This document shows positions 5,175 through 56,784 of a DNA stretch of 64,000 bases, piece after piece. The notes under the pieces were generated by a model. That model saw only the letters and a list, made by a program, of their open reading frames with translations. It had not been told where the DNA came from and ran no database searches. A program made the translations under genes and the position numbers. Each line of letters begins with the position of its first letter. The stretch's first letter is position 1. This DNA is from an uncultured Gemmatimonadaceae bacterium (GTDB lineage Bacteria; Gemmatimonadota; Gemmatimonadetes; Gemmatimonadales; Gemmatimonadaceae), in NCBI GenBank assembly GCA_963829055.1, contig CAWHHI010000011.1:128001-192000 (forward strand). Direction: 5' to 3'.

Positions 5175-5948
5175 TCAAGCCGGCGGCTTACCGAGATTCG
5201 TTAGGCGCTGCTTCACCCGCGGGTCGTTAGGCCGCTTCGTCAGCGCCGCCTGATACCGCGCGATCGCCTTCTCCTTGTCGCCCTTCTTCTCGTAGATGTC
5301 GCCGAGCTGGAAGTCGATGTCCGCCGAGTTCGCGTTGAACTCCTGATTCATCAACAACAGCGAGATGGCCGCATCCGCCTTCCCACGCTCCGCGAGCGAG
5401 CGCGAGACCGAGTTCACCGGACCTTCCGTGAAATCGTACCGCCCGTTGCCCATGTTCTCGCGCAGCTTCCGGTAGCGCGCAATGGCGGAGTCGGGCCCGA
5501 ACTTGTCCACCGCGTCCGCGATCACCGTCTCGATCGTGCCCGGAATCGGCGACCCGCGATGGCATGTCACACACTGGATGTTCACGCCCTCGTGCCGCTG
5601 CGGCAGCGACGCCAGCGTGATGCGGTTCAGCGTGTCGACCATCGCCAGCATGAAACGCGCTTTCTGCTTCTCGATCTTGTCGTCGAGCGCCGGACGCATA
5701 CGCGGCCGGCCACCCGGCTGGGCGGCGGGCTCCTCGACATGACAGTACGCGCAGTTCACGCCGAGCGCATACGTGAACCCACGCATGTACGTGAGCAGCG
5801 TGTCCCGCGGAATGTCCTTCGGGAAGAACTTGAGGTTCTCGGGCGGCGGCGGTTGCTGCCCGCCGCCCTGCGCGAGGGCGGGCACCGAGGCGGACACGAG
5901 CGCGGCTGCGGCGAGTAGTGATCGACGGACGACGAGACGGACCACCAT
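5175..5948 (-). CDS. Secreted diheme c-type cytochrome (reaction-centre cytochrome c-like domain) fused to C-terminal TPR
   Basis: Signal peptide; ENLKFF..MRGFTYALGVNCAYCH and CVTCHRG heme motifs; TPR-like tail (LGDIYEKKGDKEKAIARYQAAL). Confidence 0.8.
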   Translation of the reverse strand: MVVRLVVRRSLLAAAALVSASVPALAQGGGQQPPPPENLKFFPKDIPRDTLLTYMRGFTYALGVNCAYCHVEEPAAQPGGRPRMRPALDDKIEKQKARFMLAMVDTLNRITLASLPQRHEGVNIQCVTCHRGSPIPGTIETVIADAVDKFGPDSAIARYRKLRENMGNGRYDFTEGPVNSVSRSLAERGKADAAISLLLMNQEFNANSADIDFQLGDIYEKKGDKEKAIARYQAALTKRPNDPRVKQRLTNLGKPPA

Positions 5949-6105
5949 GAGAGACGACTCCTGGGTGCTGTCAGAAGAACTGGGACGAATCATTGCGGCA
6001 GGCATGATGGCGGCTGGCCCGGTCCTCGGCTAGATCGCGCCGACAGCCTTGCGGCGACGGGTAAGACGCGGGTGACGGCTCGACGTGGGCTCGGGCGCGC
6101 CACCT

Positions 6106-6748
6106 TCAGCGACGCATGAGCCGGAACGCGATGTTGCGCCCCATGCCACCGATCGCCATCGAGATCCACAGGATCGCGAGATGCTCGAGCTCCCGTGCGC
6201 GAATCAACGCGCCGGCGTCCACCGCATCGAAGCCGAGATCCGTCGCGAGCTGCGCCGTCTGTCGCTTGGCGCCCGCGTCGTCACCGGCATAGAACATCAC
6301 GCTGGGCACCCCGTCGTACACGGGATCGCGCATGTTCTCATAGCCGGTGGTGTTGAACGCCTTCACCACCTTCGCGTGCGGCACGAGTGCCTGAAGCTGC
6401 TCGGCGCCCGACGCTCCACCCTCGCCAGCGAGAAGCGTTAGGCCGCGGCCGATCGGGTTCGTCGCATCGATCAGCGTCACCCCGTCGAACGCCCCCGAGG
6501 CGGCGCCGGCGGCGAGCAACGCGTCGCGTGCCGCGTCCCAGGGCGTCGCGAGTACGACGACGTCCGCACCGCGCACGGACTCACTCAGCGGGGCCACTCG
6601 CACATTCGACGGGAGCGTCGTCGCTCCCTTTCACGTCGCCGCCGTCAGCGCCACGTCTCGAACCGAACGTCACATCGTGCCCGGCTGCGGCCCACCGCCT
6701 GCCGAGCGTCCCGCCGACGTTCCCGGCCCCGATCATCGTAATACGCAT
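6106..6748 (-). CDS. NADPH-dependent F420 reductase-family oxidoreductase (frameshift near 6590-6603)
   Basis: MRITMIGAGNVGGTLG Rossmann start in one frame; DVVVLATPW, IDATNP, VVKAFNT, DAGAL in the next. Confidence 0.85.
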
Positions 6749-6899
6749 AGTTCGCCGGACTCGTAGGGGTGCACACGGGTAGGCTAGCTGGGAGGCTAGC
6801 CGGCCATTGTCGCACTGGCAGGGCCCATCATACCACTCTACATTGGCGCTTGCCACGCTGATACCTCCCCGCGGTACGGTCCGCCCCTTCGGAGGCGCG

Positions 6900-9800
6900 T
6901 TGGAAGCTGCCAGACACCCAGGCTCCATTATCGCCAGTCGCTATACGTTAGAGCGCGAGCTCGGACGTGGCGGGATGGCAACGGTGTACCTCGCCCGCGA
7001 CAGCCGACACGACTCGCTCGTCGCGATCAAGATTCTGCATCCCGAATTCGCACCGTTGTTCGGCGGCGAGCGGTTCGCGCGCGAGATCCGCATCACGGCC
7101 GGACTGCAACACCCGAACGTCGTGCCGGTGCTCGACTCGGGGGACGCCGACGGCCTGCCCTTCTACGCCATGCCATTCGTCGACGGCGAGTCGCTGGCGA
7201 CGCGGTTACAGCGAGAGCATCAGCTCCCGATCAACGACGCGCTCGGCATTGCGGCTGAGGTCGCCGATGCGCTCGCCTACGCGCACGATCGCGGCTTCGT
7301 GCACCGCGACATCAAACCGCAGAACATCCTGCTGTCGAACGGCCACGCCGTGCTCGCGGACTTCGGCATCGCGCGCGCCATGGACGTCGCCAGCGGCGAG
7401 AACATCACCGAGTCGGGTGTCGCACTCGGTACGGCAATGTACATGAGCCCCGAACAGGGTTCGGGCGGAAAGGTCGACGGACGGAGCGACATCTACGCAC
7501 TCGGCTGCGTGTTGTACGAGATGCTGGCCGGCTCGGCGCCGTTCACGGGACCGACGTTGCAGACGGTGCTGGCGCGACACGCCGTCGATCCAGTGCCGCC
7601 GATCCGCACCGTTAGGCAGACGGTCGGTCCGGCGCTGGAGGAGCTGCTCGCGAGAACGCTGGCCAAAGTTCCCGCGGACCGCTTCTCGACGGCCCACGAG
7701 CTCAGGACCGCGATTGCCGGAGCAACCGCCGAGCAGGCGACGCTGCCGACGACGGCCGCCAGACGTGCATCGCCAACGCGCACGAACCGGCGGACCGCGA
7801 TCATGGCGGCGGTCGGCCTGGCAGTCGCGGCGATAGGCGTCTTGTCCTGGCGAGCGATCAGACCCGGCGCTGATGCTCTGGACCAGAATCGCATCGCGGT
7901 CTTTCCGCTGAGCCTACCCGCCGGATACACCGGCACCCGATCGTTAGGCGAGGACATCGCGACAATGATCGGCCATGCACTCGACGGAACCGGTCCGCTG
8001 CGCGCGGTGGATGGCTGGCGTCTGCTCGAGTCGCAGCCCGCCGCAGAACGCGTCTCGCCGGCGAACACTGTGCTGCGCACGCTCGCGCGCGAGCGTGGCT
8101 GCGCGTTCTACCTCGCGGGTAGCTTCGTTCAGCCCCCCGGTGATTCGCTGCGAGTGGTGCTTCGGCTGGTGGACGTGGCGAACGATTCGCTTGTGAAGAA
8201 GACGGAGGCGGTCGGCATTGCGGCGGATCCGTGGCGCGTCGGCGTTCGCGCCCTCAATCAGGTGCTGCCCACTCTCATACCCGCTGGCGCTGAGCGTGAG
8301 CTGGTCGCCGGTTGGCTCGACCGCGATCCTCAGGTGATCGCGACCTTCCTCCTTGGCGAGGCGGCGTTCCGTCGCGCGCGTCCAGCGGAAGCACTCGCGC
8401 GTTACCGCGATGCGCTGCGTTCCGACTCTACGTTCACGCTCGCGGCCGTGCGGGGCGCGCAAGCAGCAACGTGGGACCATCGACCGAGTGAGGCCGCGTC
8501 GCTGATCCAGGCGGCACTCGCGCAGCCCATGACTCCGCGTTATGCACACTTCGCTCGCGGCTACGCGGCGTACCTCCAGGGCAACGCCGACTCGGCCACC
8601 GCCGAGTTCCACGAGGTGCTGAAGGTCGATCCCGACATGGCGACGGCGTGGATGCAGCTCGGCGAGACGTACACGCATCTGCTGCCCGTGTCGGGCGACC
8701 CGACGCTCGCGGCGGACAGCGCATTCGCCGAGGCCATGCGCCTCGACCCGTCGGCGTCGCACATGTTGTTTCATCCGATCGAGATTCGGCTGCGCCGCGG
8801 CCAGACGCCCGAGGCCGCGCCGCTCATTCGCCAGTTCCTCGCTGCGGACCCCGACTCGACGCTCGCCGAGCAGATCCGGGTCATGGATGCGTGCGTGTCG
8901 CGTGGCCCCGAAAGCGTGGATTGGGCGAAAGCGATTGCCACTCGCCCGATGGCGGTGTTGTTCGCCGCACAGTCGCTCGCGGTGGCCGGCGCCCAGTTGC
9001 CGTGCGCAGCCGCCGCGTACACGGCCATTCGCGTCCACGAGACACCGGCGATGGCCGCCGCGGACCCGGTCGTCGACACGCGGCGCTGGACTGCGCTCGT
9101 GGGGCTGCAGGGCGTCCTGCTGGCTGAAGGACTCGCGGAACAAGCGGGTCTTCACGTCGACTCGGCGGTCGCACGCGGCGAGGGTGGCCATTCGGTGATG
9201 CTCATCGACGGTGCACTGTCGCCGGCTTTCGAGGCGCGTGCCGCGCAGGCGATGCGGAAATACGAGGCGCAGTGGGGACCGCGCTGCGAGCGCTGCACGT
9301 CCAACGACCGACTCTGGCAGCTCGGCGTCTGGGCGGGGCAGCAGCGAGACACCGCGTCGCTGCGCGCGTTGTCTGCCGCACTCAAGACGCGCGCGGATTC
9401 CACCGGAGCGCGGGGGGTGGCGCTCATGGCGCAAGCCACCGCGGCGCGTGCAGCACTCGCGCGCGGGGAGCTCGCGCCCGCAACGACGGCGCTCGAGGCC
9501 GTGCTGGCAACGCCCGTCGCGAGCGGCGGGGAACTATTATGGCGCGACGCGGAGGGCCGCGGCCCAGAGCGGCTGGCACTGGCGCGTGGGCTCATGCGGC
9601 AACGGCAGTTCAGACGCGCGATCGACGTTGCCGACGTGTTCGATTCGCCGGCGACGCAGACCTACGTCGCCTATCTCCCGGCCAGCCTCGAGCTGCGAGC
9701 TGCGGCTGCGGACTCGCTGGGAGACGCCTCGATCGTACCTCGCTATCGCGCGCGGATCGCGTCGCTCCGGGCGCTGGCGTCGGAAGCACCTCGGCCATAG
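6900..9800 (+). CDS. Membrane Ser/Thr protein kinase with C-terminal TolB-like/TPR region
   Basis: GRGGMA, VAIK, HRDIKPQN, DFG, YMSPEQ; TM segment AIMAAVGLAVAAIGVLSW; TPR-like helices; TTG start at 6900 after GGAGG. Confidence 0.92.
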   Translation: MEAARHPGSIIASRYTLERELGRGGMATVYLARDSRHDSLVAIKILHPEFAPLFGGERFAREIRITAGLQHPNVVPVLDSGDADGLPFYAMPFVDGESLATRLQREHQLPINDALGIAAEVADALAYAHDRGFVHRDIKPQNILLSNGHAVLADFGIARAMDVASGENITESGVALGTAMYMSPEQGSGGKVDGRSDIYALGCVLYEMLAGSAPFTGPTLQTVLARHAVDPVPPIRTVRQTVGPALEELLARTLAKVPADRFSTAHELRTAIAGATAEQATLPTTAARRASPTRTNRRTAIMAAVGLAVAAIGVLSWRAIRPGADALDQNRIAVFPLSLPAGYTGTRSLGEDIATMIGHALDGTGPLRAVDGWRLLESQPAAERVSPANTVLRTLARERGCAFYLAGSFVQPPGDSLRVVLRLVDVANDSLVKKTEAVGIAADPWRVGVRALNQVLPTLIPAGAERELVAGWLDRDPQVIATFLLGEAAFRRARPAEALARYRDALRSDSTFTLAAVRGAQAATWDHRPSEAASLIQAALAQPMTPRYAHFARGYAAYLQGNADSATAEFHEVLKVDPDMATAWMQLGETYTHLLPVSGDPTLAADSAFAEAMRLDPSASHMLFHPIEIRLRRGQTPEAAPLIRQFLAADPDSTLAEQIRVMDACVSRGPESVDWAKAIATRPMAVLFAAQSLAVAGAQLPCAAAAYTAIRVHETPAMAAADPVVDTRRWTALVGLQGVLLAEGLAEQAGLHVDSAVARGEGGHSVMLIDGALSPAFEARAAQAMRKYEAQWGPRCERCTSNDRLWQLGVWAGQQRDTASLRALSAALKTRADSTGARGVALMAQATAARAALARGELAPATTALEAVLATPVASGGELLWRDAEGRGPERLALARGLMRQRQFRRAIDVADVFDSPATQTYVAYLPASLELRAAAADSLGDASIVPRYRARIASLRALASEAPRP

Positions 9801-9868
9801 GAATCGCAGTCAGTACAGGAGTTGGTGGGCAGTAGCGAATGCAGGTTTCCATTCCTCGTGAGGAACAC

Positions 9869-10162
9869 ATGATCGATCCACAACAGGACCCGTTAGGCAC
9901 TGCGGCAAGCACACGCGAAGGACCGTCCGCACCACCGGCCAAGGGCGGCGATGGCCGCGAAGGCCCGTCCGCGCCGCCGATCGGCGGCGGCGAGGGACGC
10001 GAGGGGCCGTCCGCACCGCCGCTCAAGGGCGGGGAGGGACGCGAAGGCCCGTCCGCACCACCACTCAAGGGCGGCGAGGGGCGCGAGGGCCCATCGGCCC
10101 CGCCCATCGGCGGTGGTGAAGGACGTGGCGGGCCGCCGTCGCCGCCGCCGCGCACCACCTAA
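9869..10162 (+). CDS. 97-aa Pro/Gly-rich peptide with tandem 14-aa repeats REGPSAPPxxGG[DE]G
   Basis: GAGG RBS; five 42-bp units (9914-10123) plus one degenerate unit; differences in the REGPSAPP core are synonymous. Confidence 0.75.
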   Translation: MIDPQQDPLGTAASTREGPSAPPAKGGDGREGPSAPPIGGGEGREGPSAPPLKGGEGREGPSAPPLKGGEGREGPSAPPIGGGEGRGGPPSPPPRTT

Positions 10163-10242
10163 CGCACGGATTCCCGGGTTGCTCGCGTCGCACCACGTGC
10201 GGCGACGCGAGCGCCCCTGCCACTCATCGACCACTCCGTCCC

Positions 10243-12333
10243 ATGACCACCGAATCGACTGCTGCGCCATCCGGTGCGAAGCGCGCCCTGCTCATCGGCG
10301 TGGACCAGTACCAGTCGCCGAAGATCCCGAAGCTCCAGGGGTGCGTGAACGACGCTGGTCTCATGCGGACCATCCTGCTCGAGCAGTTCGGCGTTCCAGA
10401 GGCAAACCTGACGCTGCTCACGGATGAGCGGGCCACGCGCGATGCGATTCTCGCCGCGTTCGACAAGCTCGTCGCCGACACGGGTGCCGACGACGTCGTG
10501 GTGTTCTACTACGCGGGTCATGGCTCGCAGATGACCGACCGCGAGGGTGACGAGGCGAGTGGGCTCGACAACACGATCATGCCGGTCGATAGTGAAGGCT
10601 GGTCGGGGATCAACCGCGACATCACCGACGACGAGATCCATCTCCGTCTCGTCGCGTTAGGTAAGAAGACGTCGTACATCACGCTCATCGTGGACGCGTG
10701 CCACTCGGCCACCATCACGCGTGATGCCTTCGGTGTGATGTCCCGCGGGGTGCAGGCGGACACGCGTCCCGTGTCGGAGCTGCCACCGTCGCCCATACCG
10801 CAGGCGGCCACGCGCTCGGCGTCCGGCGTGCGGAGCGAGAGTGGTCCGAGCGGCTGGATGCCACTCGCCGATCAGTACGTGCTGATCGCCGGCTGCCGCG
10901 ATGAGGAGACGTCGTTCGAGTATCGTCCACCCGAAGGAGACGGAAAGCTCGTACACGGCGCGCTCACGTACTTCCTGTCGCAGGAGCTCGGCCGCGCCAC
11001 GCCCGGCACGAGCTACCGCGACGTGTTCGAACGCGCGGCAGCTCGCGTCACCGCGAACAACGCCAGGCAGCATCCGCAGATGGAAGGGCGCGTCGATCGC
11101 GCACTGTTCGGCGTCGCCGATCTGCAGCCGATGCATTTTACGCGCGTGGTCTCACGAACCGGCGACACGGTGACGCTGGCCGCCGGCGCCGCCCAGGGGA
11201 TGACGGTGGGATCCGTGTGGGCGGTGTACCCGCAGGGCACCAAGCACACCGAAGGCGCCTCCGAGCTCGGGACGGTCGAGATCACCCAGGTGGGCGGCGT
11301 GAGAGCCAGCGCGCGCGTGACCTCGGAAACGACCCCGAATGCGATCGCGAGCGACACACGCGCGGTGGAGCGCGTGCACGCCTACGGCACGATGCGCATG
11401 CGGGTGCAGCTCGCGCCTAACGTGGCTGCCGCTGAAGCGCGCGGTGTGGCGCAGGCCAGGTCGCTGCGTGAAGCGCTGGCCGAATCGCGCCTCATCGAGG
11501 TCGTGGGCGCCGACGATGCCACCGCCGCCGCACGCATTTATCTCGTCGAGCCGCGCGCGGCCGCTGGGCCTGACGATCCGGTTCCACAGCTCGGCCCCGT
11601 CAGCGTTGCCGTGTGGGCCGTGGTCACGACGGACGGCCAGCTGCAGATGCCGCCCAAGCCGCTCGACGCGTTCGCGGAGGTGGGTGAGAATCTCGAGACG
11701 CTCGCCCGGTGCCGGCAGGCGCTCGACCTCGAGAACCCGAGCCCGACGAGCACACTCCGCGGCAAGTTCGAGCTCGAGCTGCTGCGTCGCGGTGCCGACG
11801 GCAAGTGGGTGGTCGCGCAGCCCGAAGTCGCCGGTGGTCTGCCGGTGTTCACTGACGGCGACGACATCGCGTTCGAGATCAAGAGCCGGCACGACGTCAA
11901 CGCGTTCGTGAGCCTCCTCGATTTCAGTCCGACTGGCGCCATCTCCCTCGTCTTCCCGGCGCCTAACGCCACCGATCAGATCACGCCCACGGTACGGTTC
12001 CAGATCGGGACGCGCGGTGGTGACGACGACTTCGCGGTGTCGTTCCCGTCGGGCTACCCTTATTCGGGTGGTTCGACGACTGCCCCGACGGACGCGCTCG
12101 AGACAGTAAAGCTGTTCGTGACGACGGCGCAGGCGGACTTCAAGTTCCTCGAGCAGCGCGGCGTCCGTGGCGTCGGCCAGTCTCCTGGTGGCGCGCTGCA
12201 ACTGCTGTGGGAGACGGCGGCCGGCATGGGGTCAATGCGCGACATCGGGCGTAAATCGGTGCCCGTGGACACCGAGGACTGGACGACGGTCGTGAAGCCG
12301 TTCACAGTGCGCCGCAAGCCGGCCGGCGCCTAA
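10243..12333 (+). CDS. Caspase-family (C14, metacaspase/orthocaspase-like) protease with C-terminal DUF4384-like domain
   Basis: KRALLIGVDQY, LQGCVNDA, YAGHG (catalytic His), DACHS (catalytic Cys), HGALT, QHPQ; beta-rich C-terminal domain (GDDIAFEI..SLVFP..ETVKLF). Confidence 0.9.
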   Translation: MTTESTAAPSGAKRALLIGVDQYQSPKIPKLQGCVNDAGLMRTILLEQFGVPEANLTLLTDERATRDAILAAFDKLVADTGADDVVVFYYAGHGSQMTDREGDEASGLDNTIMPVDSEGWSGINRDITDDEIHLRLVALGKKTSYITLIVDACHSATITRDAFGVMSRGVQADTRPVSELPPSPIPQAATRSASGVRSESGPSGWMPLADQYVLIAGCRDEETSFEYRPPEGDGKLVHGALTYFLSQELGRATPGTSYRDVFERAAARVTANNARQHPQMEGRVDRALFGVADLQPMHFTRVVSRTGDTVTLAAGAAQGMTVGSVWAVYPQGTKHTEGASELGTVEITQVGGVRASARVTSETTPNAIASDTRAVERVHAYGTMRMRVQLAPNVAAAEARGVAQARSLREALAESRLIEVVGADDATAAARIYLVEPRAAAGPDDPVPQLGPVSVAVWAVVTTDGQLQMPPKPLDAFAEVGENLETLARCRQALDLENPSPTSTLRGKFELELLRRGADGKWVVAQPEVAGGLPVFTDGDDIAFEIKSRHDVNAFVSLLDFSPTGAISLVFPAPNATDQITPTVRFQIGTRGGDDDFAVSFPSGYPYSGGSTTAPTDALETVKLFVTTAQADFKFLEQRGVRGVGQSPGGALQLLWETAAGMGSMRDIGRKSVPVDTEDWTTVVKPFTVRRKPAGA

Positions 12334-12371
12334 CGACGGTCTCGCGTCGTCCCGAGGAGCGCCAGCGGGCT

Positions 12372-12490
12372 GTCATCCCGAGCGTCAGCGAGGGACCTTC
12401 TGTGAATGTAATCGTGGCCAGATCCGGCCACGATGACCTTACGAGAAGGTCCCTCGCTGCGCTCGGGTGCCGCTGGCTCCTCGGGATGAC
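12372..12490. repeat. REP/REPIN-like element, family B (GTCATCCCGAG...AGGGACCTT...AAGGTCCCT...CTCGGGATGAC)
   Basis: Nested inverted repeats between convergent genes; homologs at 21597-21717 and about 56785-56895. Confidence 0.8.
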
Positions 12491-12498
12491 GATGACAA

Positions 12499-15400
12499 TC
12501 AGCGCGTGCACCGTTGCGGGGGTCGTGACCCCGCCGGAGCGTCGACGATCCAGCGGTCGATCGATTCCTTCGAGTACGCGACCGCGCAGGCGCGCGCCAG
12601 CCACGCTTCCGGGTCCGTCAGGATGCGTACGATCTGTCCCGCTGCGTTCACCGCCAGCAACGCGCGACCGCTGTCGCCGAACGTGAGCCCCACCGCCTGA
12701 CCCTGCCCCGTTTCGATCTCCCCGATGATGTCGCCGCGCGCCACATCGCCGAGCGTCACCACGCCGTCCGTGTCGATCGCAAACAGGCGCCCATCGGGCG
12801 AGAGCGCGAACACATCGGGAGGCGGCCCCGATTTCCAGCGAAAGCGTGACGTCGGCTCGTGCCTGCCGCGCGTCCAGAACTGCACCATGAGGCCGTCGAG
12901 CGCCGCGACCACACTACCGTCCGCGCTCGTGCCCAACCCGGCGTACACTCCGATACCACTCAGTGAATCACGGACCCGCCTGGTCGCGAGATCCCACACC
13001 AGAATCGAAAACTGCGGTCCCTGCGTGACGAGCAGGTCTCCGCGCGGACTGAATTCCACCGGCGCGGGAAGGTTCGAATCCCAGAACTTGGGGCCGTTGT
13101 CGATGCCCGCGCGGAGAGTGTCCGCGGTCCTCGCGGCGAGATCCGCTACCACGACGGTGCGCGTACCCGGCAACGCGTACGCGACGCGTGCGGTCGATGC
13201 ATCCACCGCCACGGCAGCGTCCTTCGGGCTACCGACCAGCCGGTCCGGTGCGTCGCCGGCACCCTGAAACACGTACGCCGGCCCGCCGTCGCCATCGCTC
13301 GAGCCAGCGACGAGGAGACCGCCCGATGCACCGATGTACACATCCTGGCCGACGATGCGCCGGCGCGCCGCGCGGTCGTAGACGGCGCCGCGAACAGCGG
13401 GCGACGCGGTGATATCCCACACCGCGAGCTCGCCCCCAAACCCCCGTTGCGTCACCGCGAGCCTTCCATCCTTCGTTAGGCTCGTCACTTTCGTGGCCGT
13501 GTCGATGGGTAGCGCCGAGCGACGTATCAGTGCGCTATCGGCAAGATCCCAGACGTGAACGGTGCCCTCCAACGTGAGCGTCGCGATGCGGCCGCGCGTT
13601 CCGCTCACCACCAACACGTCGGGGATGTCGCCCGCCCCGTGCAGCGTGAGCGATGGCGCTCCCGGGTCCAGAGGCTGACTCGCGTCCAGGGGGCGCTCGA
13701 ACACGCGAACCTCGCCGTTCGGCGCAGCCGCCACCAGCGCCGCGTCGCGCTCCGTGAACGCCACGTCGCTGAACGTGACGCCAGTCATGAGACGTGCAGG
13801 CCGGTTCGACCGCAGCGGCCATAACGCGAGCGTATCTCCGGACGTCATGCGACCCGAGATGACCAGCGTGGAATTGTCGCGACTCACGGCGACGCCGGGT
13901 GGGAGAAAGCGAGAGCCGCCGCGCACGGTCCGCACCAGTTTCCCCGTCGCGACGTCCCAGACGCTGGTGCGCCCATTGTCCGCCATCGTGACCACGAGCG
14001 AGCCGTCCGTGCTGAACGCCGCTGGGAACGGCGGACTCGTGTGCCCGACGAGACGACTGCGCGAGCGCCCTGTCTCGAGGTCGAACAAGACCACGTCGTT
14101 GCCCTCGCCAACGGCAACCACGTGGCGCCCGTCGGCCGTTGGCGGTCCCACCCGCCAGGCGAGCGATTCCGGCCAGCTGGTGCCTGCCACGGGTGTCTCG
14201 CCTAACGACAGCGACAGCGAGTCGGACACCGCGGCCGCAATCGCCGCGGCCTTCGTCTTCTTCGCCTCGCGCAGCTCGGCTTCGCTCCACCGGCGCACCG
14301 GGACCTCACCCAGCTTTCGCCCCGTGGCCGCGTCCCACACGCGGAGCGTCGCGACGTCCGACGTCGAGTCACCCGAGACCGAGCTATACGTCATTCCGCT
14401 CGCGTCGAGAGTGACGGCGTTGCGATTCACCTCGGCCGGAAACGCCGTCTGCCGCGTTTCTACTCCGGTCGCGACGTCCATCGTGTAGATGCCATCGGGC
14501 CCCACGAGGAGCGCCCGCTCGCCATCGGGAGCAAACACCAGCTTCGTTCCGCCAGTGGAGGTCACGCGTACCAGCGTTGGGTCGCGCGCGAGCTGCGTGA
14601 ACAGCGCGCGCCGCGCCTCGAACGTCGGCGACTGCTGGTACGACGCGACGGCGTAGAGGAAGCCCAGGTCGCGTTGTTCCGGATCTGCTGACGATGCCCG
14701 CGCGCCCCACTCGCGCGACGTGCTGTCGGCGAGCCGAGCCTGCGATTGCCGATACAGAATCCAGCTGCCGACGCCGAACGCCGCGATGAGCGCGGCCGCG
14801 GCGATCGCACCGCGAACGACCCACGCGCGACGACGTCGTGCCCGATCGCGTTCGACGCGACTCGCCGCGACGAGCGCCCGCTCCTCGTCGTTCCACGCAC
14901 GCATCCCGCTCTCGCCAGTCTCGACCACGGCCAGGTCCGCCGCATCGAGTGGAATCCCGACGTGGCCATCTTTCCACTCGGCCGACCGCCCATCGAGCAC
15001 GCGCTTCGCCCTCGGCCCTGGCAGATCGGAGCGATCGAAGCGGTCGCGGACGATTGGCGCGAGTGTATCGTGGGCGAGGCGCGCCGTCGGATCCGCGAGC
15101 GGTGCACCGGTATCGTCGGTGTCGCGCACGACCAGGAGAAACAGTCGCGCGCACATCGCGCGAAGCCCGGGCGCCGTCTCGTTCGCGTGCGGATAGCGCT
15201 TGCTCTCTTCGCTGGCCGAGTGCTCGTCGGACGTCGCCTTGGGCGTCGTATAGAAGCGGAGGAATTCGAGCGCGAGACCGGAATCGACCGCCGCGGCATT
15301 CCAGGTGCGGAGCGCCTCCAACTGCTGCGTCACGAAGCCGTCGAGCTGCTTCGCTTTCGCGCGCACCGTTTCGTACAGCGCGGCGTCGAAGCGGACGACG

Positions 15401-17143
15401 TTCGCGGGACTGCCCTTCCGAGGCGCATCGGCCCACAGCTCCGCGAGCAGGATCTGCAGCAGCGGCGCGACGTGCGACGCGCGATTCGCGAGCAGATCGT
15501 CGGCGATCACGACGTCGAGCCCAGCCTCGAGCTCGAGACGCGTTGGCATTCGTCGCGCGGGAACGCGCGTTGGTCCGGTGATCGCCTCCAGCACGCCGCC
15601 GCGTGTGAGCTGCTCCAGGCGATGCTCGGTGCGAGCAACGCGGTGCGCCTCGAGCGCGCCCTTCACTTCCGACAGCCACTCCTTCCGGAATCCGAGTACG
15701 AGTCGCCCACGTGGGCGCGTCGCAGGCGTCGCGAAGAGATTCGCGATGGCGGCGGCGAACGCGTCGAGCTCACGCGCGCCGCTGCCTGCCGCGACGCGTC
15801 CCGCATCCTCGCTCGTGTACGCCTCCTCGAGCTGGTCGACGACGACGAACAGCGGTCGCCCACACTGCGCCTCGACGGCCCGCCACCGCTCGGCCACGGC
15901 CTCCGCGTCCGTCGCACGAGTGGCCTCGACGCCGAGCGTCGTGGCGAGTGTGCCGAGCAACCCGAGCGCGCGGTCGCGAGGCGCGTAGCGGACTTCGTGA
16001 GTACTCGTTAGGCGCGGCAGCAGCCCGGCGTCGAGCAGCGACGACTTGCCGACACCGGTCGCGCCGTACAGCAGCACCACTGACTCGGACGCCGCGCTCG
16101 TGACCTTGTCGTACAGCTCGCGAATGTCCTTGCCGCGTCCGAAGAACAGCTCCGCGTGCTTGCGGCTGAACGGACGCAGGTGTCTGAACGGCTCGGTGAG
16201 CGGCTCGTCGGTTTCCGGTAGCGTCGGCAGGCCGAACAGCGGATTTCCCGCAGCTTCGGGGAGCGCCCATGGACCGACCGTCTCCTCCGCGCCGCGCCGG
16301 AAGTAGAGGTCCCATGGCCAGCGTCCGTCGTCGGTCGTGACCGCGCTCTTCCGGCCAATGTCGCGGCTGCCTGACGATTCCGGCGCTGGTTGCACCACCT
16401 GCGACGCTGCGTCCGCGGAGGCGTGCATCGAGTCCGCCGTCGAGCCGCGGGCTGACCGCTCCGTGCTTGAAGCGAACGCCTGACGCGGCCTCGTCGTACG
16501 CGCGCTTGATGCCCGCCCCGCTTCCGAGTCCCTGATACAGCAGCACCGCGAACTGATGCGCGATCGCATCCTCGACGCTCCGCGACGTCGCCACCACGGC
16601 ACCAACGCCGGCGTCGCGGAGCGCGTCGACGTGCGCCTGTGTTGCGCACGCGTTGAGCACGACGAGCTGCAGCCCACGCTGACAGCCGAGGAACGCGGCG
16701 AGACCACTGGCATCGGCGACGGCCGTGGTGCCATCGGCGGTTTCGAACAACAACCCTTCTGGCCCGGCATGTCCCGCGAAGTGCAGAACGCCGATCCGGT
16801 CGCGATACGCGTCGTTCTGAAAGACGCGCATCACCTGCTCCGGCGTCGCATCCGGCAGCGTAACGACCTCGCAGATGCCGCCGCTCTGTGCCTCGCCGAG
16901 CGCCGCGACGATGTCGTTGAGCTCGAGGCTCAAGCTCCGGAGATGCCGCGCCCCCACAGCCTCGTTCGCGGTCGCGACGAGAATGACGGGCGCTCGACGC
17001 TCTACCGGTGCTGCGGTGGACGTCGACGCGTCGAGTGTCGGAGACGCGGGAGCGACGGTGTCTATGGGTTCCTTACGCTGGGAGCGGACAGGATACGTTA
17101 GCGCGGGCTGCTGCGTGCCGGAAGCGTCCGCCACTCCAGGCAC
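12499..17143 (-). CDS. CHAT protease - nSTAND-type NTPase - TM - WD40 beta-propeller protein (NLR-like); frameshift near 16450
   Basis: N-terminal frame has HFAGH and LNAC (CHAT dyad). Main frame has PFRHLRPF..FFGR, Walker A GATGVGKSS, Walker B VVDQLEE, PLLQ, a TM helix and many WD repeats. Start is uncertain. Confidence 0.85.
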
Positions 17144-17166
17144 TCATACCGATCTGATTTCTGGAA

Positions 17167-17474
17167 CAGCAGGACAGGACGGCCAGGATGGGCTGGATGA
17201 CGGCAACTGCAACTACAACTACATGACAGGATTGGCAGGATGGACAGGATTGAACAGAGGCTCCGTGTCGCGCCCAACGCCCCTCCCGCAACGAGCCCAG
17301 TATGAGGGGAACGGCCGCTCGGGACGCCACTCGCCCTGAGATGTGTTCCTTCATTCGTTAGGCCCCGGCGACACGCGCCCCGACGCCGAGGCGGTCATCT
17401 TCTCAATCCTGCCAATCCTGGCCATCCTGTCTTGCGGTTGCCGTTCCGCGGTTGCCGTTCCTGTCAATCCTGTC
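17167..17474. repeat. CAGGAT-type repeat family C (CAGGATTGGCAGGAT / ATCCTGCCAATCCTG)
   Basis: Left-arm units at 17167-17250, complementary units at 17405-17474; same family at 21748-21836 and 56947-57037. Confidence 0.7.
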
Positions 17475-17489
17475 ACCGCTGCAGTTGTC

Positions 17490-19875
17490 CTACTGGCTCA
17501 CCCCACGCGAGTCACTCACCGGCAAGTGCTCGCGCAGATATCGCGTGAGCAGCGAATACAGGTGCAACGACGTCCCCTCCCCTTCGCAGATGCAGTGCGT
17601 GCGGTTCGGGTAGGCCATCATGGTGAACGGCTTGTTCGCCTTCACCAGCGCGTTGACGAGCGCTTCCGTGTTCTGATAGTGCACGTTGTCGTCGCCGCTC
17701 CCGTGCACGACCAGCAGGTCTCCCTTGAGTTGATCCGCGAACGTCACCGGTGAGCCGTTCTTGTAGCCCTCCGGATTTTCCTGCGGCAGCCCGACGTACC
17801 GCTCCTGATAGATCGTGTCGTAGTAGTGAAGGTCGGTCACGGGCGAGACCGCCATGCCCATCTTGTACACATCGGGCGTGCGGAACATGACGTTGAGCGT
17901 CGTCGCTCCGCCGCCGCTCCAGCCCCATACCGCGAGCCGCTGCGGATCCACGAACGGCCACTTCCCGATCGCGCGCGCGGCCGCTGCCTGATCGCCGCCA
18001 TTCAATACGCCCATCCTGTTGTAGATGGACTTCCGCCACTCGCGCCCGCGCGGCGCCGGCGTGCCGCGATTGTCGACGCTCATGACGATGTACCCCATCT
18101 GCGACAGCATGAGATGCCACAGATACGTGCCACCGCCCCACGAGTCCACGACCGTCTGCGACGCGGGCTCGCCATACACGTGGAACAGCACCGGATATTT
18201 CTTCGTCTGATCGAAGCCGGGCGGCTTGATCATCCATCCGTCGAGCTGCACGCCGCCGCCGATGTCCACGCGGAAGAATTCGCGCGGGCCCTGCTCGAGT
18301 CCGGCGAGCTTCGCTCGGAGCGCCGCGTTGTCCTGCAGCACTCGAACGCGACGGTGATCGGGGAGCGTGATGATCTCGACCGTCGGCGGGGCGCCGAACG
18401 ACGACCACGTGTGCACCGCATAACGCCCGTTAGGCGAGAGGAGATACGCGTGCGTTCCCGGCTGGTCGGCTGGGGTGACGCGCGTCGTGACACCCGGCTT
18501 CTTGAGCGACGTCCGATACAGGTAGAGCTGCGTCGGGTTCTGCGGCGACGCGTAGTGATAGAGATACTCGCCCGTCGCATCCGGGCCTAACACGGCAAGC
18601 GCGCCGAACGCGGACGCCGGATGTGAGACGTCCATCGCGTCCGCACTGAGCGGCGTGACGGTCGCGCCGTCGCGCGTGACGCCGTACATGCGCCGCCAGC
18701 CGCTGCGCTCGCTCATCCAGACGAACCGACGGTCGGCGTCGATCCAGCGCACGTCACTCACCACATCCACCCACGCCGAGTCACGCTCGGTGAGCACGGT
18801 GCGGACGGCGCCTGTGCTCGCGTTGGCGAGCAGCACATCGATCTGGTTCTGACGCCGGTTGAGTCGCTGGATCAGTAATTCGCTCGAGTTCTTGTCACCC
18901 GCCCAATCCATGCGCGCGAGGTACTGATTACGCGGGTCTCCATCGATGGCGAGCCATCGTGTCGCGCCGCCGGCAGCCGGGATGACGCCGATGCGGCCGG
19001 CGGAGTTCGTGGTGCCCGCTTTCGGGTACTGCACCGGATTCACGAACGAGTACAGCGAGTCGGTGTCGTCGATGAGATTGAAGTTCTTCACCCCGCTCGC
19101 GTCGAGCTGCCAGAACGCGATCGACTTGCCGTCCGGGCTCCAGCGGAAGCCGTCGCGAAGGCTCAGCTCCTCCTCGTATACCCAGTCGAACGTGCCGTTG
19201 ATGATCGTCCGCGACCCGTCGCGCGTCAGGCGCGTGATGGCACCGCTGGCGACGTCCTCGACGTAGAGGTCGTTCTGGCGCACATACGCGACGCGTCCGC
19301 CGTCGGGGGAGAACTTGGCGAACATGAGCGTGGACGCCGGCGCGTCGCCGCCGAGCTTGCGAAGGCCACGAGTGCCGAGGTCGAGCACCCAGTAGTCGCC
19401 GCGGGTGTTCTGCCGCCAGACCTTCTCCGACGCGGTGAAGACGAGGAGTCGCTTCCTGTCCGACGACCAGTCGTAGTCTTCGACGTCGAGCGGCGCGGCC
19501 GCCCCGTTAGGCGTGAGCCACGTCGTGGGCACGATGACGTCGCGCGCGCCCGTCCTGCGCATTGAACCGCGCCAGCTCAGCCGCCCCGGGCTGCTGCGGA
19601 TTTCCCTGGAGCGCGACGTACGTCGAGTCATTCAGCCACCGAAGCTGCCCGGCGCCACGCGCGGCGAACTCGCCGGACGCGAAGATGCGCTCGAGCGTGA
19701 GACGGCTCGGGCTCGACGAAGCCGGCGGTGTGGCCTGGGCGCCGGCGTGGGCAGACGCAATCAGCGCGATGGGGGCGATCAGAAGGGCACCAGCCAGCGC
19801 GGCGCCTCGAATGCGTGTGGGACACGGGCCGTATTTCCAATGCTCGGGTGAGACCGCGCCCACATCATCGGGCAC
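17490..19875 (-). CDS. S9B dipeptidyl peptidase IV-like secreted peptidase (frameshift near 19560)
   Basis: DWVYEEE, YPKAG, GWSGGG nucleophile, DDNVH, catalytic His; signal peptide and LTLERIF in the upstream frame; start approximate. Confidence 0.92.
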
Positions 19876-47602: not shown

Positions 47603-48515
47603 GTGCAACTCGTCATTCGCGACCTATCGAAGACCTATGCCAATGGCACTCGAGCGTTGAACCACGTCTCGCTCGACGTCCCACCCGGGATGTTCGGCCT
47701 CCTCGGCCGGAATGGCGCCGGCAAGTCCACGCTCATGCGGATCATCGCCACGCTGCAGGAGCCGGACGAAGGGTCGGTCCGGCTCGGCGACATTGATGTC
47801 ATTCGTCAGCGGGAGCGCGTACGCGAGACGCTCGGCTACCTGCCGCAGTCGTTCGGGTTCCACCCGAAGGTCAGCGCAGAGCGGCTGCTCGATCATTTCG
47901 CGGTGCTGAAAGGCCTCATCGAGCACGGGCGTTAGGCGCGACGTCGTCGATTCCCTGCTCCGCCGGACCAACCTGTGGGATGTGCGGACGCAGAGGCTCG
48001 GCACCTTCTCCGGCGGCATGCGGCAGCGCTTCGGCGTCGCCGTCGCCTTGCTAGGCAGCCCGAAGCTGATCATCGTCGACGAGCCGACGGCGGGGCTGGA
48101 TCCGGAAGAGCGCGTCCGCTTCCTGAATCTGCTGAGCGAGATCGGCGAGGACAGCGCGGTCATCCTGTCGACGCACATCGTCGAGGACGTCGAGGAGCTG
48201 TGCACCCGCCTCGCGATCATCGATCGCGGCGAAATCCTGCTGGAGTCGGAACCGATGCGCGCGATCGCGGAATTGCGGGGCCGCATCTGGCGCCGGAGTG
48301 TGAGCCGGGACGAGCTGGCCGCGCTCGAGCAGGAGCTCCCGGTGATCTCCACCAAGCTGTTCGCGGGGCGGACGGTCGCGCACGTCTACGCCGACACCTC
48401 GCCGGGAGCGGCGTTCGAGGCCGTCGAGCCGGACATGAAGGACGTCTACTTCAGCGTCATGGCCGGGCACCATGGACGTCGGGCGCCAGCATCGCAGACA
48501 CGGGTGGCGTCGTGA
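47603..48515 (+). CDS. ABC transporter ATP-binding protein, copy 1 (frameshift near 47930)
   Basis: GRNGAGKST, FSGGMRQR, VDEP, STH. Confidence 0.92.
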
Positions 48516-51500
48516 GATTTGGGGAAGTCTTCCGATACGAATTCGGGTACCGCATGCGAAGCGCCTCGACGTGGGGCTATGCGGTGTTCCTGTTCCTCAT
48601 CATCGTCTGGGGCACCCTTGCCACCGCCGACGGCGGCGCGGTCAATGCCAACGCGCCGATACAAGTCGCCCAGGCCACGGTGCTGTTCGGCGGGTTATTC
48701 GGTCTGGCGGTCTCCGCGGCGCTCTTCGGTGATGCCGCAATCCGCGACGTCGCGGTCGGCATGGATCAGCTCCTCTTCACCACACGACTCCGCAAAGCCG
48801 AGTTCCTCGGCGGCCGTTTCCTCGCCGCGCTGGCGGTCAACGCCATCGTCGTCCTCGCCCTGCCGCTGGGACACATGGTCGTCGACAGCGACACCGTTGG
48901 TGGGCTCGGAGCCGCTCGGCCCCTTCCGCCTGGCCGCGTATGTCCAACCGTTGCTGCTGTTCTCGTGGCCCAACCTCATCCTGGCAGGCGCGATCCTGTT
49001 CGCCATCGGGGCGCTGGCCCGGCACGTGGTTCCGGTGTACCTCGCGGCGATCGGCATCCTCATCGGGTACGTGACGGCCGCCAATTACTGGACTGGTGTC
49101 GACAACCCGCTACTGTCCGCGTTAGGCGACCCACTCGGCATCAATGCGCTGTTGGCGATGAATCAATACTGGACACCGGCCAACAAGAACGCCCAGCTCA
49201 TCGGCTTCCCGACATTGATGTTGCTGAACCGCGTTCTCTGGGTGGCGGTCGCGGCGGCCGTGTTCGCTCTGCTCCACCGGACATTCCGGTTCGCACACAC
49301 GAGTGAAGGCGGTCGTCGGCGCAAAGGCGTGGACGCGGTGGCAGCTGCCCCGTCGGAGCGGCACTCGCTGGTGGCGATTCCAAGAGCTGTCGGAACCTTC
49401 GGACTCCGCACCCGGCTGTGGCAGACGTTCGCGATCGCGCGTCGCACGTTAGGCGACGTCGTCGCCGGCCGCGCATCGCGAGTGATGCTGCTTGGCGCAG
49501 CCGGGTGCGTCGTGCTCATGGGCTGGAACGTGACCGAGACCGTCTTCGAGACCACAACGTGGCCGGTCACGCATCTCGTCGCCGGAAGGGTCATCTCCGA
49601 TCGCGTCGCGATCATCCCCTGGCTGATCATCGTTCTCTTCGCGGGTGAGCTCGTGTGGAAGGAGCGCGAGGTCGGGACGGCCGAAATCGCCGACGCCGTG
49701 CCCGTGCCCGATGGCCTCGTGGTGCTCGGGCGCTTTCTGGCGCTCGTCGCGATAATCGCGGCCGTGCTCGCGTCGCTCATGATCGGCGGCGTCCTCATGC
49801 AGGCGCTGCAGGGCTATTACCACTTCGAGCTCGGCCTCTACGCGCGCATCCTTTTCGGCTTCACGTTCGCCGATTGCGTGCTCCTCGGTGCGCTCGCCAT
49901 GACGGTGCACGTGCTCGTGAACCACAAGTACGTTGGCCACATCGTCGCGCTGTCGGCATGCGTGTTCACGAAGGTCGCGCCGGCCTTTGGTTTCCAGCAC
50001 CACCTGCTGGTCTACAACACCGATCCGCACTGGACGTACTCGGACATGAGCGGCTTCGGTCCGTTCACCGGTCCGTTCGTGTGGTTCAAGCTCTATTGGG
50101 CGGCGTGGGCACTTCTGCTCGGGGTGCTCGCGGTCCTGTTCTGGGTGCGCGGTCGCGAGCCCGGAGTGCGCCGTCGCTTCGCCATGGCGCGTGCGCGGTT
50201 CATCGGGCCCGTCGCGCGAGCGGCCGCGGTGGCGATGGTGCTCATCCTGGGGCTCGGTGGATTCGTTTTCTACAACACGAACATCCTGAACGAGTATCGC
50301 ACGCGGAATGAGACCGGGGCGCCGCAGGCCGAGTACGAGAAGCGCTACGCGCGTTTCGAGAAGACGCCGCAGCCGACGATCACGGACGCGACGCTGCGTG
50401 TGGAGATTTATCCCGATGAACCCGCCGCCGATGTGCGCGGCACTTATGTGCTCACGAACAAGACCATACACGAGATCGATTCGGTACACGTGTTCGCCGA
50501 TCCGAACGTCGAGGCGCGTTCGTTCTCGCTCGACCGCCCGGCCAAGCCTGTGCTCACGGATGCGAAGGCCGGGTATCGGATCTTCGCGCTGGAGCGGGCG
50601 CTCCAGCCGGGCGACTCGCTGCGGCTCACGTTCGATGTGCGCCTCGGTCAGCGCGGCTTTCCGAACGGCGGATCACAGACCGACGTAGTTCGCAACGGCA
50701 CGTACTTCGACCGACGCCGGCTGCCGTTCATCGGGTACCAGCCGATGTTCGAGCTGTCCGGCAACGAGGCACGGAAGCGCTTCGGTCTCGCGCCCCAGCC
50801 GCCACTGCCCGGGCCTAACGACGTCGAGGCCCGACAGTACCGCGGGCAGGTGCGCGGCGAGGATCGCGTCCACGTCGAGGCGACGATCGGCACCGCCATC
50901 GACCAGACGCCGATCACGACGGGCGTGCTGCGCCGAAGCTGGACGGAGAAAGGCAGGCGCTACGTCCAGTACGAAACCGAAGGTCCCGTCTCGTTCGCCG
51001 GCCCGATCTTCTCCGGTCGGTATGCCGTGCTCGAGGACCGGTGGACTCCGTCGACGGGCGCGGGACAGTCTGTCTCACTCGAGATCTTCCATCACCCGTC
51101 CCACGGCAAGGGTGCGGACCCGATGATGCGAGCGATGAAGGCATCGCTCGACTACTACACGAAGAGTTACGGGCCGTACCCCTTCCGCCAGCTACGCATC
51201 GTCGAAATACCGCCGTACTCGACGTTCGGCCACGCGGACCCAGGCACGATCGCGTTCTCCGAGGACGCGTTCTTCGGTCGAATCAAGGAAGGAGAGCTCG
51301 ACCACATTTTCTACGGGGCCTCGCACGAGATCGGGCATCAGTGGCAGGTGAGCGACGCCGTCGTGCGCGGTATCGGATACCTGAGCGAATCGTTCGCGAA
51401 CTACAGCGCAGTGATGGTGACCGAGAAGACCTACGGTCTGGAGGCAGCTCGCCGAGCCTACGGCTTTCACATGGAGCGCTATCTCGTCGGGCGGGCGGAG

Positions 51501-52121
51501 CAGTCGCGCGAGGTCCCGGTGCTCGACGTCGAGCGGCAGACCTACATCATGTACCGCAAGGGCGCGATCGCGCTCCTCACGCTGCGCGACTTCCTCGGCG
51601 AAGACGCAGTGAACACGGCGCTGCGGCGATATCTCGAGAAGTACCGCAATGCCGGGCCGCCGTATCCGACGGCGCTCGATCAGTATGCCGAGCTGCGTGC
51701 CGTCACACCCGACTCGCTTCGGTATCTCCTCACGGATCTCTTCGAGACGGTCACGCTCTGGGACGTGAAGACCGAACGCGCGTCCGTGCAGCCGACGGGC
51801 ACCGGTGCCTATCAGGTCACGCTCGACGTCGTCGCGAAGAAGATGAGGGCCGACAGCGTCGGTACGGAGACCGAGGTGCCGATGAACGACCTCGTCGAGA
51901 TCGGTGTCTTCGCGCCCGGCAAGGACGATGGCCTGGGCGAGCCGCTCTACCTAACGCGGCACCGTATCCGGAGCGGCAAGCAGACGATCGTGGTCACCGT
52001 ACCTCGGCAGCCGTCGCGCGCGGGCATCGATCCCTATCGCAAGCTGATCGACCGTCAGCGGGAGGACAACGTGGCCGATGTCGAACCCGGAGCGACGGCC
52101 GCGCCCCGCACTCGTCCTTGA
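48512..52121 (+). CDS. ABC-2 permease fused to M1 aminopeptidase domain, copy 1 (frameshift near 48880)
   Basis: About 12-13 TM helices, then a soluble domain with HEIGHQW..ESFANYS and YRKG. Confidence 0.88.
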
Positions 52122-52146
52122 TCCGTCCCTACCTCCGCCTTTTCGT

Positions 52147-56000: not shown

Positions 56001-56776
56001 ACCAGTGGTGGGGCATGCAGCTCAAGCCCGCATTTGCCGAGGGCGGCGGCGTCATCTCCGAGAGCCTCGCGTGGTACTCCGCGATGCAGCTCGTGAAGAA
56101 CGTGAAGGGCCGGGAAGCGCTGCGGCGGTTCATGAGCTTCATGCGCGAGCCGAACCCGTGGCCGCAGATCCGCACGGGACTTCCGCTGCTCCGCGCGATG
56201 GATCCCTGGGCCAACTACCGCAAAGGCCCATACGCGATGCACGCACTCAGCGAGTACGTGGGCGAGGCCCGGGTGAACGGGGCGCTTCGCACGCTGGTGG
56301 AGAAGAAGGCGTCGTCCCTGGCCACGACGCTCGACATGTACCGGGAGCTTCAGGCGGTCACGCCGGACTCGCTCAAACCGCTGCTGCACGACCTCTTCGA
56401 GGTGAACACGTTCTGGACGTTCGATACGAAGCAGGCCACGGCGGTGCAGACCGACAACAGGCACGTGGCAAGTGACGTTCGACGTCGAGGCGCGAAAGGT
56501 CGTCGTCGACAGCGCCGGCAAGGAAACGGAGGTGCCGATGAATGAATGGGTGGAGATTCGGGATCTTCGCCGACGCCGAGGCCGGGCGAGATCGCTCGGC
56601 ACAGCCGCTGTACGTGCAGAAGCATCGCGATCCGCTCCGGCAGGCAGACGATCACGGTGATCGTGCCTGACAAGCCCGCGCGCGGCGGCATCGACCCGTA
56701 CAACCTGCTGGACTGGGAGGAGGGCGACAACATCGAGGAGGTGACCGTCCAATCGCCGTCGAAAAAAACGAACTGA
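53092..56776 (+). CDS. ABC-2 permease fused to M1 aminopeptidase domain, copy 2 (many frameshifts)
   Basis: Colinear with copy 1 (WFKLYWAAWALLL, YGPYP-like); HEMGHQWW..ESLAWYS; GIDPYNLL terminus. Confidence 0.85.
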
Positions 56777-56784
56777 GTGGCCTC

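Follow-up and report, generated by a model that had tools for sequence, protein, structure and literature searches.

Organization of the locus

The 64,000-nucleotide stretch analyzed here (the window, G000:C11:128001-192000, within a 7.8-Mb assembly of 20 contigs) comes from a soil bacterium of the phylum Gemmatimonadota, to which its named relatives also belong. Three genes on its + strand encode a receptor-type Ser/Thr kinase, a 97-amino-acid (aa) repeat peptide, and a caspase, and a convergent gene beyond them encodes a protein with CHAT, nSTAND1, transmembrane (TM), and WD40 regions. A preliminary description of this DNA had claimed four adjacent genes: the open reading frames (ORFs) are present, and the intergenic gaps of 68 bp (kinase-peptide) and 80 bp (peptide-caspase) are confirmed. 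Its domain labels agree with Pfam (Pkinase plus TPR, Peptidase_C14, CHAT, nSTAND1, and beta-propeller), the catalytic motifs that it named were found (His93/Cys153 in the caspase, HFAGH/LNAC in CHAT), and the membrane nature that it gave to the kinase and the STAND protein is borne out by a single hydrophobic segment in each, at ∼aa 298 to 320 in the former and after the STAND domain in the latter.

By its sequence, the first gene product (966 aa; 6900..9800, + strand; assigned from Pfam, motifs, and a structural model) is a Hanks-type receptor Ser/Thr kinase, with VAIK, HRD, and DFG motifs intact in the kinase domain (aa 15 to 266), the single TM segment, and a C-terminal sensor domain. Its TTG start agrees with the N termini of close homologues, and in 100 of 107 full-length homologues the kinase domain is followed by a hydrophobic segment. 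From what is known of the family, the kinase domain would face the cytoplasm and the TPR domain the outside. The ectodomain model (pLDDT 92) predicts a small alpha/beta domain and then a long TPR solenoid, for which the top VIA-align rows are the PEX5 TPR clamp that binds C-terminal peptides (Z 19.6; root mean square deviation, 4.2; 208 aligned residues); Foldseek matches include the CadC periplasmic domain, and ESM Atlas matches are to generic TPR clusters only. Two Cys residues are invariant in 33/33 ectodomains, as are the polar residues R171 and E269 in the TPR part. These modeled features fit a periplasmic peptide sensor. The predicted complex of the ectodomain with peptide residues 45 to 76 scored 0.01, a value that counts neither for nor against binding. 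A DNA search of 40 relatives had kinase-domain paralogues among the matches listed (no conclusion here draws on one of those genomes, the unpublished G157), and G000 itself has 84 kinase-domain loci, 12 CHAT matches, and 3 C14 matches.

The second gene (9869..10162, + strand), recognized from the ORF list, tandem repeats, and codon bias, encodes a 97-aa precursor-like peptide that consists of a short leader, five 14-aa units (R, then EGPSAPP-x-x-GG-E/D-G), and a degenerate sixth. The units are encoded by a 42-bp tandem array (9913..10125, + strand), detected by TRF at period 42 and its multiples, with a strong synonymous bias: pairwise differences among the five 42-bp units number 14, 10, and 72 at codon positions 1, 2, and 3, and 62 codon differences are synonymous and 18 non-synonymous. 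GAGGA lies upstream of the ATG. The ORF is coding and under constraint at the protein level. The peptide has no signal peptide (maximum hydropathy, −0.54), no match in Pfam, PADLOC, or NCBIfam, and no usable match in the ESM Atlas. A protein search of 401 genomes with the peptide as query returned true kinase neighbors in G162 and G138 only, the other 9 matches being low-complexity noise by their place; homologous peptides were thus located by position behind the kinase and not by sequence search. Two other roles for the peptide were considered and rejected, that of a polyproline stalling leader (several arrays lack PPP, and the partner follows the kinase regardless of the downstream gene) and that of an amyloid motif (the composition is Gly/Pro rich).

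The third gene (10243..12333, + strand) encodes a 696-aa protease of the C14 family, assigned from Pfam (Peptidase_C14, PF00656, E 1.9e-30, plus a weak DUF4384 match), residue conservation, and fold; its C-terminal domains are beta rich. His93, Cys153, Cys34, Asp37, and Asp151 are invariant in 34/34 homologues. Cys34, Asp37, and Asp151 correspond by motif to Cys92, Asp95, and Asp211, given as S1 residues of TbMCA2 (PMC4357240), and were also aligned to motifs of Yca1 and AtMC4. Because both catalytic and S1 residues match TbMCA2 by motif, cleavage after Arg/Lys is predicted. The best solved relatives by sequence are fungal Mca1 and AtMC4 (E ∼1e-20), and the modeled fold matches AtMC4 (top), AtMC9, and Yca1. 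With a dyad in a C14 fold and an acidic S1 pocket, the protein is, by sequence and model, a C14B metacaspase-like protease or orthocaspase. Arg160 and Arg168, in the p20-p10 linker, are present in 34/34 homologues and Arg642 and Arg666 in 30 to 31; all four map to, or next to, loops that were modeled with low confidence, in linkers that bear conserved xR-D/G motifs, and are candidate processing sites. Six distant caspases (25 to 36% identity) were also seen on viral contigs.

Conservation of the kinase, peptide, and caspase genes

Close homologues of the caspase (46 to 59% identity) occur in 7 other genomes among the 401 of the phylum. The order kinase-repeat peptide-caspase is kept in G119, G172, G096, G162, and G377; the locus in G352 is cut by a contig start, and in G316 a kinase of the family is oriented divergently. 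The three-gene order persists, with short gaps, between kinases whose ectodomains are only 38 to 51% identical and across two families. The synteny of four genes that the preliminary description had supposed therefore stands for kinase, peptide, and caspase, which recur in order across two Gemmatimonadota families, and not for the CHAT-STAND-WD40 gene of the window. On this comparison of sequences, three genes make up the conserved core, namely those for the kinase-TM-TPR protein, the repeat peptide, and the caspase.

The kinase family was examined in 116 loci (30 + 6 + the best 80 of 183), which form 100 clusters at 90% ectodomain identity, 96 of them with downstream sequence. Under a fixed rule (ATG within 125 nucleotides [nt], 30 to 230 aa, and a Pro-rich last 30 aa), a small Pro-rich ORF follows the kinase in 66/96 loci, and by eye in 83/96, whereas the same rule found one behind 0/13 other long kinases from the retrieved loci and 1/31 from the kinase's own genome. 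Sorted by eye, 39 of the partners are tandem repeats delimited by Arg, 34 are helical and mostly end in a Pro-rich tail, 7 are histone-like, rich in Lys/Arg and with a Pro tail, and 3 are other Pro-rich proteins; 13/96 loci have no small partner. Where genomes are named, the kinase/peptide module was seen only in Gemmatimonadota.

Arg is the constant residue amid the divergent units of the repeat peptides. The 223 Arg sites in 37 peptides have E, D, or G at P1′ in 204 cases and G at P2′ in 166, and the commonest Arg-to-Arg fragment is 11 to 14 aa long in 32/37 despite the divergence in sequence (e.g., EGAPPPPPGGGR, DPQPKPIEAIDR, and EGGTAPPDKGR). After cleavage at Arg, the last Pro would sit 2 to 7 residues from the new C terminus in 35/36 repeat peptides, and in 33/39 non-repeat partners the last PP lies 0 to 6 residues from the natural C terminus. 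The N termini of five non-repeat partners are of export type (signal, lipoprotein-like, or TM; L078, L079, and L195 by pattern and L180 and L199 by eye), which would place the Pro tail on the ectodomain side; these five are a distinct exported class that shares the same Pro tail. Histone-H1-like, Lys/Arg-rich partners with a Pro tail were observed in L138, L139, L140, L149, L150, and L159, and L090 and L179 combine such features with Arg repeats and a caspase. L155 has no peptide; an ORF that starts 59 nt behind the kinase may encode a SIR2/TIR-associated defense protein.

A caspase gene lies directly downstream in 26/34 scorable Arg-repeat loci (21/29 when only kinase-baited loci are counted) versus 2/49 others. 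Fisher's test on this contrast (p 2e-12) was rejected as evidence, since kin are not independent. In a FastTree tree of the kinase ectodomains (93 sequences, with 7 of the 100 left out as short rows), both traits fall largely within one clade and only five independent pairs remain, so that the contrast may reflect a single historical event. Judged from these sequences, the repeat-caspase association is long conserved, without independent statistical replication.

The caspase/hydrolase/CHAT module

Many caspase homologues run into, or precede, a DUF7379 alpha/beta-hydrolase, followed by a CHAT-TM protein of an architecture other than the window's. Among 13 repeat-plus-caspase loci with at least 4.8 kb of downstream sequence, a hydrolase is present in 9 and a CHAT match within 9 kb in 6. 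The hydrolase is the usual fourth member, and the component list of the preliminary description, which overlooked it, was to that extent incomplete. The window caspase lacks this hydrolase; by gene content, the window's lineage has lost it. Against solved structures, DUF7379 matched only a lipase (E 0.17). A short ORF behind the hydrolase in G172 (L025:12650-12961) has a start that resembles the N terminus of the window-type CHAT and is perhaps a remnant.

In 37 GTDB loci with the caspase, the kinase ectodomain is upstream in 8/10 titled Gemmatimonadota and 0/27 others. The 27 loci outside named Gemmatimonadota include a CHAT match in 14 and a STAND match in 4, and in L097 (Calditrichia) the caspase is followed by a window-type CHAT-STAND gene in the same direction. 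The different distributions suggest two modules, one of caspase/(hydrolase)/CHAT found across phyla and one of kinase/peptide. Multicaspase clusters with CHAT, hydrolase, or STAND genes were noted in Calditrichia, Chloroflexota, and Rhodothermales (L097:7476-13954, L101:3158-15248, L098, and L103). G000 has a second caspase locus (L031:10607-19411, equivalent to G000:C3:570606-579410), with a 1,168-aa caspase-DUF7379 protein, a short ORF, and a 1,613-aa caspase-TIR-WD40 protein.

The CHAT-nSTAND1-TM-WD40 gene of the window (12499..17143, − strand), assigned from Pfam, its frames, and close strains, is convergent to the caspase gene and would, if the reading of close strains applies, encode an NLR-like protein of ∼1,550 aa. 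The nSTAND1 match (E 2e-33) includes a Walker A motif, GATGVGKS; with the CHAT effector on its N-terminal side and beta-propeller repeats, the protein has, by sequence, the NLR-like effector-STAND-repeat architecture, in one ORF in close strains. The start is uncertain: GTG at 17143 has no clear ribosome-binding site. The preliminary description had read the gene as a single protein, which is right for the domains and not for the frame, as CHAT and nSTAND1-TM-WD40 are in different frames in this assembly, with the break at ∼16455 to 16476. Relative to short-read contigs, one extra base (16455..16455) shifts the frame between CHAT and STAND. Runs X1 and X3 gave contigs without this base; X9 spans the place with no deletion listed, and X2 has no coverage there. 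Contig L128 (98% identical) reads CHAT through STAND in one frame, and CHAT plus STAND is one ORF in the relatives G356 and L097. Since 19/84 kinase-domain loci of this assembly are also frameshifted, the split is likeliest an assembly error. Two ABC-permease/M1-peptidase-like genes at 47900-56800 (labels by eye) lie in several frames, consistent with the indel rate of the assembly.

A close relative of the window STAND protein was found in one of 390 other genomes (G356), where no close homologue of the window caspase or kinase ectodomain lies in the 20 kb that surround the STAND gene. Among the 13 repeat-plus-caspase loci, a convergent STAND gene is present only in the window and in L130, which has a decayed hydrolase remnant between the caspase and STAND genes. 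On this distribution, the window CHAT-STAND-WD40 gene is one interchangeable occupant of a CHAT slot near the caspase and stands outside the conserved set. Its sole paralogue, for both CHAT and STAND, is a row of WD40, CHAT, and nSTAND1 genes at L032:5986-11299 (G000:C20, ∼28 to 33 kb).

The accessory island

An accessory island (∼6040..17500) contains the four genes and, at its left end, a small NADP-oxidoreductase gene. The genes that flank the island (window 5175-5883 and 17518 onward) are ∼250 bp apart in the congeners G401 and G402, from which it follows that all four genes are in a single insertion of ∼11.5 kb; in G404 and G405, different DNA occupies the site. The flanking dipeptidyl-peptidase gene is present in 5/5 congeners searched. 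The caspase gene was found in none of these five (genome completeness, 83 to 92%), and their matches to the kinase ectodomain are distant (111 to 146 bits). The common island supports grouping the four genes and says nothing on joint arrival or function.

The left-end gene (6106-6780, − strand) is F420-dependent NADP oxidoreductase-like and is split near 6620, at a base that three runs do not have. An intergenic palindromic repeat (12334..12498), which we take to be REP-like, has 363 blastn matches in the genome and high contig depth and sits where relatives have the hydrolase gene; together with a second abundant repeat (17190-17470; 133 matches), it flanks the STAND gene on both sides. A promoter and terminator scan gave results at chance level.

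Proposed function and alternatives

We propose that the locus encodes a protease-matured peptide alarm, in which the caspase would cut the precursor and peptides freed by damage would bind the kinase at its periplasmic TPR domain, and we put the probability of this at about 45%. The kinase and the small protein downstream would be a receptor-ligand pair, widespread in Gemmatimonadota, with ligands that share a Gly-then-polyproline motif a few residues from the C terminus. One clade would have multiplied this motif into Arg-delimited tandem units and would have gained, directly downstream, an Arg-specific metacaspase from the caspase/(hydrolase)/CHAT conflict module that occurs across phyla. 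The array would be tied to an Arg protease because its five or six ligands come free from the one precursor only on cleavage. A threat would activate the caspase through a neighboring membrane CHAT protease (e.g., that of the window), Ca2+, or self-cleavage at linker Arg residues, and the caspase would then cut the cytoplasmic precursor after each Arg into five or six near-identical 12- to 14-mers and, where a hydrolase is present, free that as well. The peptides, without a signal sequence, would exit on damage or lysis and reach sister cells, where their binding to the TPR domain in the periplasm would switch on phosphorylation by the kinase. The genes, their conserved order, the geometry of the repeats, the catalytic and pocket residues, the predicted folds, and the island are observed; peptide cleavage, ligand binding, release by lysis, and a defense role are our inferences. 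Only tentatively, and with the odds somewhat against it, do we suggest the window CHAT-STAND-WD40 protein as initiator of the cascade: recurring CHAT neighbors and the SAVED-CHAT precedent favor this, and the convergent, nonconserved position of the gene speaks against it.

Several observations weigh against the alarm proposal. None of the repeat peptides (0/39) has an export signal, so that the repeat form would need damage, lysis, or some other route to reach the receptor, which would suit an alarm. Peptides were sorted into classes by eye; one clade accounts for most cases of both the repeat type and the linked caspase, and the five independent pairs give a sign-test median p of 0.25. The adjacent caspase is missing from 8/34 repeat loci: of three checked genome-wide, G138 and G190 have other C14 genes 4 to 7 kb away, and the assembly of G153 (94% complete) has no C14 match. 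The fourth Ca2+-ligand position of the caspase (Cys+7) is Arg160, with Asp161 at +8 (D109/D116, D129, and D130 are conserved), similarity of the modeled TPR fold by itself shows no function, and the loci examined hold no conserved output gene for the kinase.

The same absence of signals would be expected if the peptide were an antitoxin-like partner that silences the cytoplasmic kinase domain until the caspase shreds it at its Arg sites, leaving a toxic kinase and abortive infection, a role near that guessed for PCk. Export would then be unnecessary, and the partner gene would always stand behind the kinase, as it does. Antitoxins autoregulate through DNA, and the Lys-rich histone-H1-like variants (7 clusters; NCBIfam match below the cutoff) could bind DNA in this way; PCk reportedly could not be cloned and is probably toxic (10.1101/2023.06.23.546230). 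We nevertheless consider this explanation unlikely: the five non-repeat partners with signal, lipoprotein-like, or TM N termini do not fit it, 13/96 family loci without a partner are unexpected for a strict antitoxin, and the partner tracks this ectodomain family and not kinase domains generally (controls, 0/13 and 1/31). Slightly less likely again are two independent modules on one island, with the kinase paired to an unprocessed peptide as multivalent ligand and a separate caspase/hydrolase/CHAT conflict module captured once. The caspase subfamily does occur without kinase or peptide in 27/27 loci outside named Gemmatimonadota and 2/10 inside, the repeat loci that persist without an adjacent caspase agree with separability, and the linkage is phylogenetically non-independent; yet independence leaves unexplained why order and short gaps were kept at 38 to 51% ectodomain identity in two families and why Arg is the single constant residue of divergent units beside an Arg-type protease.

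A PCi-like role, by which the peptide as decoy substrate or inhibitor would set the threshold for caspase activation, would account for a peptide gene with five or six Arg sites directly upstream of the caspase gene, and the xR-D/G motifs around R160, R168, R642, and R666 of the caspase linkers would be in keeping with it. According to the same preprint (10.1101/2023.06.23.546230), PCi is an inhibitor of PCaspase as well as its substrate and is predicted to be folded and CI-2-like, whereas the window peptide is Gly/Pro rich and unfolded. Moreover, loci without a caspase still have the peptide gene behind the kinase, and the Pro motif is retained in non-repeat relatives with no caspase, which makes a decoy improbable. 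Modification by the kinase on Ser/Thr-Pro, with the peptide as phospho-acceptor scaffold or as precursor of a ribosomally synthesized and posttranslationally modified peptide (RiPP), is very improbable: many units, including those of the window, have Ser or Thr before Pro or Ala-Pro, but the arrays of L083, L122, L152, and L153 have neither residue, no modifying or export genes were seen in the loci, and lanthipeptide synthetase models match the kinase domain only, far below the cutoff.

Comparison with known systems

The preliminary description recognized no named system in this arrangement, and the comparison upholds that view: PADLOC returned only generic kinase-domain and caspase-domain matches, and NCBIfam only generic domain matches for the locus proteins. 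Searches of the open literature, with subscription papers and supplements outside their scope, found no account of the kinase-peptide pair or the three-gene module. Real and conserved, the module is apparently undescribed, a variant of protease-matured peptide signaling or of caspase conflict cascades.

By analogy and not by membership, the locus may work most like plant MC4-PROPEP1-PEPR. The source describes, for AtMC4-PROPEP1/Pep1-PEPR and ZmMC9-Prozip1, an Arg-specific metacaspase, a precursor peptide released on damage, and a receptor kinase (PMC13157962). Common to both are a clan CD protease with Arg specificity (predicted here; AtMC4 is the top fold match), an unstructured precursor without a signal, and a membrane Ser/Thr receptor kinase. 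Unlike the plant pathway, the ectodomain is alpha/beta plus TPR and not leucine-rich repeat (LRR), the precursor is a tandem array, the genes are clustered, and neither peptide nor ectodomain is homologous.

In Haliangium ochraceum, SAVED-CHAT activates PCaspase by cleavage in a cluster with PCi, PCk, and PCc-sigma (10.1101/2023.06.23.546230). A CHAT protease, a caspase-like protease, a Ser/Thr kinase, and a small protein are likewise grouped in the window, but the island CHAT is fused to STAND-TM-WD40 (TM-Ig in other loci), the kinase has TM and TPR regions, and the small protein consists of tandem repeats. Neither SAVED nor a sigma factor, CRISPR, or cyclase was seen in the island (Pfam and PADLOC on the four proteins; there is no other large gene).

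RRNPP(A) pairs resemble the locus in a TPR receptor gene followed by a small propeptide-type gene, and several pheromone copies can be cut from one tandemly duplicated propeptide (PMC11343458). In Bacillota, RRNPP receptors are intracellular and of 250 to 500 aa, and the propeptides are exported and then processed by proteases outside the cell (PMC10075063). The window, in contrast, has a 966-aa membrane kinase, a peptide without a signal, and a (cytoplasmic) caspase encoded alongside; judged by sequence, RRNPP membership fails on receptor type and secretion.

The pairing of caspase and alpha/beta-hydrolase in the relatives' loci and of nSTAND1 with a peptidase effector recalls the systems of Kaur et al., in which the VMAP caspase is always paired with an alpha/beta-hydrolase (Kaur et al. 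2020, PMC7159879) and nSTAND1 is paired with peptidase effectors (Kaur et al. 2021, PMC8195603). The term 'Gemmatimonad' occurs in neither main text, and no kinase-peptide pair appears in the passages covered. No MoxR-vWA, VMAP, or EACC1 core genes are in the island (NF047832, 50.8 bits versus a cutoff of 140).

Implications

If the alarm proposal holds, the metacaspase of a dying or threatened cell may release several identical peptides and so alert sister cells by way of their membrane Ser/Thr receptor kinase, and sequences specific to each lineage may serve as kin-specific channels, though we regard this extension as doubtful. Such a cytokine-like danger signal would be a functional parallel, from bacterial parts, of plant phytocytokine and animal caspase-1/IL-1 signaling, an analogy that we offer with the same reserve, and its place within a larger undescribed family of kinase/Pro-tail-peptide pairs is just as speculative.

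We know of no substrate for most bacterial caspase homologues and of no gene-encoded peptide ligand for bacterial Ser/Thr receptor kinases, and literature searches turned up none of the latter. In one operon, the locus brings together candidates for protease, substrate, cut site, and receptor, and dozens of natural peptide variants allow comparison of cognate and noncognate pairs. It is also a first entry point to the large expansion of kinase-TPR proteins in Gemmatimonadota, of which the kinase-domain loci of G000 are an example. If the proposal is true, warning peptides released by proteases would not be exclusive to eukaryotes.

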